31,035 nt of DNA, from assembly GCF_003334255.1 (NCBI RefSeq), contig NZ_QOWU01000060.1, one strand, 5' to 3'. Positions 6,807 to 8,564 of this stretch are shown piece after piece (position 1 is the first letter of the stretch; the number at the start of each line of letters is the position of its first letter). The DNA comes from Escherichia coli. GTDB lineage: Bacteria; Pseudomonadota; Gammaproteobacteria; Enterobacterales; Enterobacteriaceae. The position numbers and the translations under genes were made by a program. The notes beneath the pieces were generated by a model that worked only from the letters and a program-made list of their open reading frames with translations, made no database searches and had not been told where the DNA came from.

Positions 6807-7502
6807 TCAGAACGTTTTCTCGTTGGGTTGCCAGCGACAGAAATCAGAGTTTGCCACTAACAGTAATTGCGAACCTTCGGGCGCTTCCAGCCATGCCACG
6901 CTGACATCAACAGAAGAGCGGCTCTGGCGGCGCTCGATATGCGCTATCGCCTGCGAATCTAAATCAGGTTTAATGGTTTGCCCTTCGCAGGTGGTCACGG
7001 TCTGTTCCATCGCATGCCAGCGCCCCTGGCGCAGCACGACTCTCCCCTGACGTAAGGCATCGCTAATCTGGCGGATCTGATCAGCACGATAACGGTATAA
7101 ATCGATTTGGTCGTTAGAAAGCTGCTGCTTTTCCCCATCGGATTCACGTTGCATAAAGCTCAGATCACCGCGATCGTCAAAACGCGCGCGAATATTCACC
7201 GGCGGTTTGCTGTAAACATTGATATTGATGAGCGTGAGGTTATCGCCCTGCCAGCGATACTCTCGCGTCGTGGTATCGCCACTGCGCCACGGGCTAAACA
7301 CGGCAAGCAGATGCACATTATCGCCGCTGTCTTTTCGCCAGATGCGTACCGCGCCCTGGTCTTCAGCAAATCCACTGGCGGTAAAGGGAGGAAGTGAAGA
7401 GTTATGACTACAGGCAGTGAGAAGCAGAGCGCCAGCCAGCATCAATGATCGACGCCAGAAAGACAAAAGGGGTGAAACCACCCCTTCGTTAAAACTGTTC
7501 AC
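6807..7502 (-). CDS. yjaH: conserved protein of unknown function, probable lipoprotein
   Basis: ORF in frame with the 233-codon track entry; lipobox LLLTAC|S after a hydrophobic stretch. Start uncertain: GTG at 7508 (233 aa), GTG at 7502 (231 aa, the length I recall) or ATG at 7442 (211 aa). Its stop is 1 bp from the convergent zraP stop. Confidence 0.8.
   Translation of the reverse strand: MNSFNEGVVSPLLSFWRRSLMLAGALLLTACSHNSSLPPFTASGFAEDQGAVRIWRKDSGDNVHLLAVFSPWRSGDTTTREYRWQGDNLTLININVYSKPPVNIRARFDDRGDLSFMQRESDGEKQQLSNDQIDLYRYRADQIRQISDALRQGRVVLRQGRWHAMEQTVTTCEGQTIKPDLDSQAIAHIERRQSRSSVDVSVAWLEAPEGSQLLLVANSDFCRWQPNEKTF
7455..7489 (-). terminator. rho-independent terminator downstream of hupA
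   Basis: Minus-strand RNA AAGGGGUG-guuu-CACCCCUU followed by UUGUCUUUCU, about 26 nt after the hupA stop; lies inside the annotated 5' end of yjaH. Confidence 0.65.
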
Positions 7503-7514
7503 TGCCACGCAATC

Positions 7515-7787
7515 TTACTTAACTGCGTCTTTCAGTGCCTTGCCAGAAACAAATGCCGGTACGTTAGCTGCGGCAATTTTGATTTCTTTACCGGTCTGCG
7601 GGTTGCGGCCAGTACGCTCAGCGCGGTGGTTCACTTTGAAGGTACCGAAACCAACCAGTTGTACAGCATCGCCTTCTTTCAGAGACTCAGTAATTGCAGC
7701 CAGAGTGGACTCCAGAGCAGCTTTAGCCTGGGTTTTGGACAGTTCTGCTTTCTCTGCAATTACATCAATCAGTTGAGTCTTGTTCAT
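7515..7787 (-). CDS. hupA: nucleoid protein HU alpha subunit
   Basis: 90-aa [93 protein letters not shown]; RBS AAGGAT upstream. Confidence 0.98.
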
Positions 7788-7973
7788 AAGTTATCCTTAC
7801 AATGTGTTTATCGCTTGCTAAGCATCGAGTGCGACGGAAATGCCAGAATAGCACTCTCCTGCATACACGCACCGATAGCCACTTTTTTTCGCCCCCCAAA
7901 TGTAGACCAGACGGGGGGCGAAAGGGAAGACTCCAGGTACGACAAATCAGGCGTTAAATCACGTTTTCTGGTC

Positions 7974-8564
7974 TTATTGCTGAAAAATTATACCAATATT
8001 GCTCTCACCCGCCTCACGCAGGTCTGCCCTAAGGCCTTTTATCAGCTCGATATCGCGTTCTTCGCACTCAGCTAAAAGTCGGAATATTTCCCACTGAATG
8101 TCCCATTCTTGCTCTACAGCTGGGTTTTCTTTAAGCTCTTCATCGCTCATTTCGCGACCAGCCTGAGTCATTTCCAGCATCGCAACGGTCGTGATGGAGG
8201 TCTTACTCACTTCCACCGCGTGTTCGAGCGTTTCACCACTCAAACGCGAATGGACCAGTTCACTTAACGCCACGCAGGCATCGATTGCCGGATAAACGCC
8301 GTACAGATCGAAATCGTCGGCTGAAGGAATCGCTTCTTCAAATTTCTCCAGTTGGCTGTCGAAATTTACTTTTGCGTCTTTAACGGTCAGCGTTTCCCAG
8401 ATGAGATCGAGAATGCGACGGTAAATTTGCCCATCACCAAAACCGGTTTGCTGGCAGAACATGGCGTAATTGGGGTACATGCGTTCGCATAAGCAAGCCA
8501 TGAAAGTGACATGCTGCCAGCTTTCCAGGCGCTCCAGACGCAGATGAATTGGGTTTTGTAACAT
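7974..8564 (-). CDS. yjaG: conserved protein of unknown function (DUF416 family)
   Basis: 196-aa ORF MLQNPIHLRLERLESWQHVTFMACLCERMYPNYAMF...; position between nfi and hupA matches K-12 synteny. Confidence 0.9.
   Translation of the reverse strand: MLQNPIHLRLERLESWQHVTFMACLCERMYPNYAMFCQQTGFGDGQIYRRILDLIWETLTVKDAKVNFDSQLEKFEEAIPSADDFDLYGVYPAIDACVALSELVHSRLSGETLEHAVEVSKTSITTVAMLEMTQAGREMSDEELKENPAVEQEWDIQWEIFRLLAECEERDIELIKGLRADLREAGESNIGIIFQQ

Follow-up and report, generated by a model that had tools for sequence, protein, structure and literature searches.

Three orphan genes beside hupA and rpoC of Escherichia coli: probably unrelated neighbours, one of them in a plasmid-type cassette with the small RNA gene sroH

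Introduction

Does the position of a gene next to hupA or rpoC say anything about what its product does? The question is raised by a 31,035-nucleotide (nt) stretch of DNA from Escherichia coli (referred to here as the window), which carries three genes, yjaG, yjaH, and yjaZ, whose products bear no assigned function. yjaG and yjaH flank hupA, the gene for HU-alpha, and yjaZ lies downstream of rpoC, next to the small RNA (sRNA) gene sroH. A preliminary description of the window, made from its sequence alone, singled out these three open reading frames (ORFs) as the only products without a biochemical function and drew attention to their linkage to hupA and rpoC, which can be read as a pointer to a role in nucleoid biology or in RNA polymerase function.

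We consider it likely that the three orphans are mutually unrelated and that their hupA and rpoC neighbours say little of their function. YjaG would be a widespread, strongly constrained gammaproteobacterial protein whose sole recurrent partner outside the enteric bacteria is barA; YjaH would be an envelope lipoprotein restricted to the enterobacterial lineage and dependent on a leaky terminator for its expression; and yjaZ and sroH would form an accessory, plasmid-type pair. HU and RNA polymerase are not the right leads, and the search can be narrowed gene by gene. Since the genes and their families are already catalogued as orphans, the finding is an ordinary one with a single modest new lead: yjaZ and sroH go together in a cassette of plasmid type with which relBE is interchangeable, the one point here that may interest specialists.

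Results

The window and its three orphan genes

The window is a part of the E. coli chromosome. A 2.5-kb query around yjaG-hupA-yjaH was matched with 100% identity by many strains, and 5421 of 5426 complete E. coli genomes contained at least 80% of it. The RefSeq gene order of an identical strain is purHD, zraRS, zraP, yjaH, hupA, yjaG, nfi, hemE, nudC, rsd, thiCEFSGH, rpoC, and rpoB. The features around hupA are as follows.

8564..7974, minus strand: yjaG, a 196-aa ORF of the DUF416 family
7788..7973, minus strand: yjaG–hupA intergenic region, 186 nt
7787..7515, minus strand: hupA (HU-alpha), a 90-aa ORF, RefSeq annotation
7457..7487, minus strand: hupA intrinsic terminator from the terminator scan, with hairpin and T-run at 7487..7466, GAAGGGGTGGTTTCACCCCTTT and then TGTCTTTCTG
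7502..6807, minus strand: yjaH, a 231-aa ORF with a GTG start, predicted DUF1481 lipoprotein precursor

To judge from homology, yjaG, yjaH, and yjaZ are real genes rather than chance ORFs, because each product matches a family hidden Markov model and homology searches return hundreds to thousands of homologues. That all three lack a functional assignment was borne out both by database names and by the searched literature. The source databases call the products "YjaG family protein", "DUF1481 domain-containing protein", and "stationary phase growth adaptation protein" or "heat-shock protein C", and the searched papers contain screen-level mentions but no functional study of yjaG, yjaH, yjaZ/htrC, sroH, DUF416, or DUF1481. 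None of the three proteins matched a PADLOC model (E≤1) or an entry in PHROGs.

YjaG and the distribution of its linkage to hupA

YjaG is an all-helical, cytoplasmic protein of the DUF416 family (Pfam PF04222, E=2.1e-83, residues 5–192 on model positions 1–187 of 188), acidic (isoelectric point, pI, 4.45) and without a signal peptide. Sequence and profile searches of the PDB returned two DUF416 entries as their sole matches, 2q9r (E=1e-31 by sequence) and 3f7c (E=1e-22 by sequence), both deposited as proteins of unknown function; with the profile the E-value reached 1e-83. YjaG is 35–38% identical to their chains over residues 9–193 and has the invariant motifs in common with them; the 2Q9R sequence is itself 97–99% identical to Shewanella loci. 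In the alignment these motifs are ERxxPNY, YGVYPAxD, and GxSNIGI. The E. coli protein has no feature that distinguishes it from the rest of the family, which is functionally uncharacterised. Identity across Enterobacterales is 80–93%, with 90% between E. coli and Buttiauxella and 80% between E. coli and Proteus.

In Enterobacterales, yjaG is the final gene of a tightly packed nudC-hemE-nfi-yjaG string, in which the E. coli spacers are 39 nt (nudC–hemE), 9 nt (hemE–nfi), and 42 nt (nfi–yjaG); the distance from yjaG to hupA is 186 nt, which is room enough for a separate hupA promoter. hupA is served there by an established CRP/Fis-regulated promoter of its own. The spacer also contains a GC-rich hairpin at 7885-7921 on the minus strand (CGCCCCCC…GGGGGGCG), which is followed by an A-run instead of a T-run and is therefore not a canonical terminator on either strand.

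The distribution of the linkage was assessed with a profile scan that used one genome per species and an alignment headed by a Shewanella sequence. The 80 DUF416 matches closest to the query were each searched for E. coli HupA, YjaH, Nfi, HemE, and NudC within 6 kb. Among these best 80 loci, only those of Buttiauxella and of the Enterobacterales isolate CwR94 had such neighbours; none of the five was found within 6 kb of the DUF416 gene at the other 78, which belong to Shewanella, Ferrimonas, Marinobacter, Alteromonas, Bowmanella, Idiomarina, and related organisms. The plasmid collection contributed three further cases, all of them chromosomes filed there under a wrong label. In Proteus the order nudC-hemE-nfi-yjaG-hupA-yjaH-purD-purH is complete, and in Aeromonas and Halomonas the DUF416 gene has unrelated neighbours and not hupA. 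Thus yjaG adjoined hupA at 4 of 4 Enterobacterales loci versus 0 of 80 other gammaproteobacterial loci, in a sample that lies outside Vibrionales and Pasteurellales. The preliminary description had itself named a restriction of the linkage to enterobacteria as the outcome that would speak against its proposal, and since the linkage to hupA was limited to Enterobacterales, this is largely the outcome obtained.

Outside the enteric bacteria, the DUF416 gene lies directly behind barA on the same strand at about 60 Shewanella, Ferrimonas, and Marinobacter loci, where the two genes overlap by up to 26 nt or stand up to 11 nt apart within a conserved rlmD / barA–DUF416 / pgpA-thiL arrangement. Examples of such barA–DUF416 stretches are positions 3192-6573 of locus L007, 3248-6579 of L057, and 3251-6582 of L059. 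In Alteromonas and Bowmanella the gene lies directly behind that of a yhgN-type transporter. As a slowly evolving gammaproteobacterial protein, YjaG would most likely be a non-enzymatic protein-binding or regulatory factor, a guess made from its composition and fold.

YjaH as a predicted envelope lipoprotein

YjaH matches the full DUF1481 domain (Pfam PF07356, E=1.1e-72, residues 42–227 on model positions 1–186 of 186), a family without a solved structure; neither sequence nor profile searches of the PDB gave a credible match. Its signal peptide ends in the lipobox LLTA-C31, which is followed by Ser, and in an alignment of 28 sequences C31, C172, and C222 are invariant, so that the lipobox Cys and the Cys pair of the family are both kept. 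On these features YjaH is predicted to be an exported envelope lipoprotein; the Ser at position +2 and the conserved Cys pair make an outer-membrane anchor, with the protein facing the periplasm, probable. An exported lipoprotein would be in a compartment other than that of HU and therefore could not meet it. The AlphaFold 2 model (predicted local distance difference test, pLDDT, 87) comprises a disordered signal peptide, an eight-strand beta-meander at residues 40–126, a long helix at 130–152, and a small domain of the alpha/beta type. A structural search with this model gave no analogues beyond generic beta-sheets (outer-membrane barrels and OspA), and these had a high root-mean-square deviation. 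A network prediction of 2009 gave YjaH/DUF1481 a role in pathways of the lipopolysaccharide core (PMC2672614).

All YjaH homologues that were listed with an organism name are from Enterobacterales, and DUF1481 was not detected by tblastn in the Aeromonas or Halomonas replicons. Identity to the E. coli protein is 61% in Buttiauxella and 35% in Proteus; by these values YjaH appears to drift fast while YjaG is strongly constrained.

The start of yjaH is ambiguous, with candidates at GTG 7508 (233 aa), GTG 7502 (231 aa, RefSeq), and ATG 7442 (211 aa, some annotations). A TTG within the T-run of the hupA terminator is conserved in four genera, and the apparent conservation of an N-terminal peptide "EG..PLL" in YjaH coincides with the terminator stem. 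At its other end, yjaH (minus strand) converges with zraP (plus strand), with one base between the stop codons (6803-6809); transcripts of the two must therefore overlap, and the pair has been described as a convergent excludon (PMC12288877). In a microarray study, yjaH, zraP, and cpxP fell together (PMC1852313).

Coupling of yjaH to hupA through a conserved terminator

Consistent with the preliminary description, yjaG, hupA, and yjaH are all encoded on the minus strand according to their ORF coordinates, and a terminator-like hairpin with a T-run behind hupA overlaps the annotated 5' end of yjaH, that is, its N-terminal coding end. Its claim of short spacers is correct for hupA–yjaH (6–12 nt) but not for yjaG–hupA. 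The hairpin and T-run occur at the same position after hupA in E. coli (GGGGTG…CACCCC), Buttiauxella (GGGGCG…CGCCCC), CwR94 (GGGGGCG…CGCCCCC), and Proteus (GGGGGAG…CTCCCC), and the stems show compensatory changes. In all four lineages the terminator lies at the extreme start of yjaH, and signal-peptide coding begins within or just after the hairpin. yjaH thus shares the strand of hupA and follows it after a minimal spacer, as a member of a hupA operon would, but the junction is not free of a terminator, which stands before the lipobox.

With a terminator in this position, yjaH cannot accommodate a promoter of its own and is therefore probably transcribed by read-through of the hupA terminator. 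Such transcription would give yjaH a low expression proportional to that of hupA. Judging from this arrangement, read-through transcripts are the most likely source of YjaH, and the relation between the two genes would be one of expression coupling rather than shared function, at best an attenuated read-through. The suggested partial co-transcription with hupA is accordingly plausible on anatomical grounds for yjaH.

yjaZ belongs to an accessory cassette

The features downstream of rpoC are as follows.

18282..17743, minus strand: yjaZ (formerly htrC), a 179-aa ORF, NF007263
17581–17741, plus strand: sroH sRNA, Rfam RF00372, 201 bits
17719–17740, plus strand: terminator hairpin of sroH, abutting the yjaZ stop codon at 17743–17745
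17489..18409, strand not applicable: accessory yjaZ+sroH cassette of about 0.9 kb, 41% GC, from the strain alignment
18450–18473, minus strand: terminator hairpin of rpoC, between the rpoC stop (18495) and the yjaZ start (18282)

The statement that yjaZ is carried directly behind rpoC was right as to strand and order; yjaZ nevertheless lies beyond the rpoC terminator and outside the rpoC transcription unit. The sRNA locus, which had been placed next to the rpoC terminator, adjoins yjaZ instead.

YjaZ is a soluble, basic protein of 21 kDa (pI 9.3) that scores 430 bits against the NCBIfam equivalog NF007263 (cut-off 324, covering 1–179 of 179); the newer Pfam family PF27200 covers its homologues, and a library of 1.8 billion proteins holds 208 representative clusters of them. 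H23, H52, R78, R84, and Y127 are invariant in the family. No credible match in the PDB was obtained by sequence or profile search. A Foldseek search of AFDB50 with the model (pLDDT 92.7) returned only the protein's own family under the names "heat shock protein C", "stationary phase growth adaptation protein", or "uncharacterized", two of the top 50 matches bearing evidently misassigned names; the structural relatives, which come from cyanobacteria, Deinococcus, Acidobacteria, and Burkholderiales, all lack an assigned function. Outside the family, the structures closest to the model are type II toxins of the RelE/ParE superfamily, with which YjaZ may share a fold. Structural comparison, which the preliminary description had recommended for all three proteins, yielded models or homologues but no function: entries of unknown function for YjaG, generic beta-sheets for YjaH, and RelE/ParE toxins as the nearest analogues for YjaZ.

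The distribution of the cassette was surveyed with a 1.2-kb query that spans the 3' end of thiH, sroH, yjaZ, and the 3' end of rpoC, with at least 80% coverage counted as presence. By this measure 3719 of 5426 complete E. coli genomes contain yjaZ and sroH; the rest, about 31%, match the flanks only and have no cassette. yjaZ therefore cannot be a conserved partner of rpoC. In an alignment with strain 214-4 about 0.9 kb is missing, and the rpoC terminator is retained about 45 nt from the thiH-side flank. The GC content of the cassette is 41% versus 53–55% in the flanks, and an imperfect 11-nt direct repeat brackets it (AAATTCCGTAA at 17489-17499 and AAATTCCTTAA at 18399-18409), which is compatible with insertion with target duplication or with deletion between the repeats. 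A patchy distribution of sroH has been described before, with phylogroups B2 and D among those that lack it (PMC3318445).

Homologues of YjaZ were detected by tblastn in 577 plasmid records. yjaZ is the main ORF of 2.46-kb ColE1-type plasmids, and it was also found on a P1-like plasmid, on IncF plasmids beside insertion sequence elements, and next to an integrase gene. Distant forms overlap the stop of a restriction-endonuclease gene or follow an N6-methyltransferase gene. The same type of search in 50,697 phage genomes gave no match. Taken together, the pair would be a low-GC, plasmid-type element that lies between the rpoC terminator and thiH in most E. coli, and YjaZ would most likely act on nucleic acids for mobile elements, either as an enzyme or as a binding protein, and not as an accessory factor of heat shock or of RNA polymerase; the htrC designation and the "heat-shock" role have been retracted (PMC11551758).

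SroH accompanies yjaZ and relBE on plasmids

sroH is convergent to yjaZ and ends 1 nt short of its stop codon. The window contains a full-length match to RF00372, far above the Rfam threshold of 80 bits, and a promoter-like TTGTAA-17-TATGAT for sroH at 17546–17574. The searched papers treat SroH as a chromosomal sRNA of E. coli and Shigella; here it was also found on plasmids, the copies scoring 99–160 bits. In ColE1-type, P1-like, IncF, and Serratia plasmids, the Rfam match abuts the stop of the yjaZ homologue in the convergent orientation, and in several further plasmids the adjacency of sroH and yjaZ was established by matching coordinates. sroH was beside the yjaZ stop in every checked replicon with a close yjaZ homologue. 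No SroH was detected near distant YjaZ homologues (≤35% identity), even at relaxed Rfam thresholds.

DNA resembling sroH occurs in 104 plasmid records, always beside yjaZ or relBE. In the latter case, IncFII-type plasmids of Enterobacter, E. coli, Citrobacter, and Klebsiella carry relE–relB between sroH and a tyrosine-recombinase gene (5 of 5 sampled), so that relBE holds the slot of yjaZ, and homology between the relBE version and the Serratia yjaZ version stops exactly at the sroH terminator. On the IncFII-type plasmids, whether yjaZ (Serratia) or relE–relB is convergent to it, sroH adjoins the 236-aa tyrosine-recombinase gene and usually also a DUF2913 gene, and palindromes such as GAATACCAATGTATTACATTGGTAATTC flank the region (L094 4001-4129, L095 3816-3944, and loci L099-L103).

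Among seven aligned SroH copies, 30 predicted pairs are kept, 5 of them with compensatory changes; the hairpins are variable in sequence and always self-complementary. The possibility that sroH or its antisense strand is a small-protein gene was rejected, as neither of the ORFs concerned (29 aa and 51 aa) is conserved. The 51-aa ORF (17640..17485, minus strand) has a hydrophobic stretch, is antisense to the 5' part of sroH, and resembles a type I toxin; it is present in the chromosomal copy only and is absent or truncated in three plasmid copies, and because of this lack of conservation it is probably spurious. The SroH motif TTCTGAATAC recurs upstream of yjaZ in the same sense as the yjaZ messenger RNA (18391-18400 versus 17690-17699; inverted repeat I12), and, again in the same sense, the yjaZ leader shows 73% similarity to SroH 17614–17639 over 26 nt (repeat I1). 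In both repeats the SroH and yjaZ-leader RNAs are similar and not complementary.

Discussion

Our reading of the three genes as unrelated orphans has to be weighed against explanations that give their neighbourhoods a functional meaning. YjaG and/or YjaH might work with HU in nucleoid biology as a functional operon, the acidic YjaG acting, for example, as a DNA mimic that titrates the basic HU. Small acidic HU-binding DNA mimics are known, such as DMP12 of Neisseria and HI1450 of Haemophilus, and the pI values of YjaG and HupA (4.45 versus 9.6) would suit such a pair; the gene of the presumed mimic, however, is spaced away from hupA and packed with nfi and hemE instead. From Escherichia to Proteus, Enterobacterales preserve the order yjaG-hupA-yjaH, but the linkage is absent from the 80 non-enterobacterial loci. 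Likewise, the closeness of yjaH to hupA is offset by the conserved terminator between them and by the predicted export of YjaH as a lipoprotein, and no paper in the searched literature links either protein to HU. We regard this explanation as highly improbable. If the recurrent neighbour outside the enteric bacteria is taken as the guide instead, DUF416 would be an accessory factor of the BarA/UvrY (GacS/GacA) pathway, and its enterobacterial position a secondary relocation. The same-strand succession of barA and the DUF416 gene in Shewanella, Ferrimonas, and Marinobacter is what recommends this idea, which we nonetheless think very unlikely: the two genes do not adjoin in Alteromonas, Idiomarina, Bowmanella, Aeromonas, Halomonas, or any of the examined Enterobacterales, and their adjacency could be synteny inherited in one part of the tree.

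For yjaZ and sroH, the alternative is more specific. The two would form a toxin–antitoxin-like or abortive-infection addiction module, in which YjaZ is a metal-independent ribonuclease (RNase) of the RelE fold and the structured SroH restrains it by pairing at the 3' end that the two have in common or by binding the protein. The invariant His, His, Arg, Arg, and Tyr residues and the basic pI of YjaZ agree with such an enzyme, but the relation to RelE is not evident from sequence: an hhalign comparison of a 63-sequence YjaZ profile with a plasmid RelE gave a probability of 0.4%, and no toxin appeared in the profile search of the PDB. Mobility favours the idea, with the pair on at least five unrelated replicon types, the 3' end of the sRNA 0–3 nt from the stop codon, and yjaZ–sroH as the main cargo of the 2.46-kb plasmids, and so do the compensatory base-pair changes in SroH; against it, neither PADLOC models nor phage genomes were matched, and the distant YjaZ homologues lack a detectable SroH, some of them lying inside operons instead. 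A genuine relBE fills the same slot beside sroH, with the break in homology at the sroH terminator; yet SroH persists there beside a toxin that has its own antitoxin, and it is therefore not a dedicated partner of YjaZ. There is no reported toxicity of yjaZ in K-12, which bears sroH.

Comparison with known classes of toxin–antitoxin systems gives a mixed picture. RNA antitoxins encoded convergently to, and overlapping the 3' end of, the toxin gene are found in the type I systems txpA/RatA and bsrG/SR4, and ToxIN is a type III system with an RNA antitoxin. yjaZ–sroH resembles such systems in having a structured sRNA convergent to a protein gene, a terminator hairpin in common, and joint mobility. 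Type I toxins, however, are small hydrophobic peptides, unlike YjaZ, and no conserved small toxin ORF was found on either strand, including hydrophobic ones antisense to sroH. In type III systems the antitoxin repeats are upstream of the toxin gene on the same strand, whereas SroH and yjaZ overlap in the terminator stem at most. Nor does a type II module fit, there being no conserved co-oriented partner ORF beside yjaZ in the chromosome or in the plasmids. We consider the addiction module unlikely, and the same holds for the wider proposal of a mobile two-gene module that pairs a RelE-fold, RNase-like protein with a convergent sRNA, provides RNA-controlled addiction or abortive infection, can be exchanged for relBE in plasmid maintenance regions, and has been domesticated behind rpoC in most E. 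coli. If it were true, a function could be given to SroH, an orphan sRNA since 2003, and the former "heat-shock gene htrC", since retracted, would receive a new interpretation.

Several points weigh against our preferred reading of three unrelated orphans. The invariant polar motifs of YjaG (ERxxPNY, YGVYPAxD, and GxSNIGI) could equally mark an enzyme, and the hupA linkage may reach somewhat past Enterobacterales, because Vibrionales and Pasteurellales were outside the sample. The read-through of yjaH is drawn purely from anatomy; a promoter inside hupA is possible, and the sigma-70 scan was so strict that it missed even the known hupA promoter. Either insertion into E. coli or recurrent loss could have produced the patchy distribution of the cassette, and a published analysis favoured loss of sroH (PMC3318445). 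Finally, the biochemical roles given to YjaG, YjaH, and YjaZ are proposals rather than demonstrated activities.

On the reading that we prefer, gene position does not point to a nucleoid-protein or RNA-polymerase role: the yjaG–hupA adjacency was confined to Enterobacterales in the sample, YjaH is predicted to be exported, and yjaZ is accessory. yjaZ is best studied together with sroH as plasmid-type cargo; through this association, which lends itself to direct testing, an orphan sRNA is connected with both a protein family and toxin–antitoxin cassettes.

Two further RNA features of the window were matched by Rfam. A thiamine pyrophosphate riboswitch lies at 11788-11888 on the plus strand, upstream of thiC, where RefSeq also annotates a riboswitch, and a match to "Pseudomonas sRNA P26" lies at 27077-27138 on the minus strand, within the ribosomal-protein/rpoBC region.

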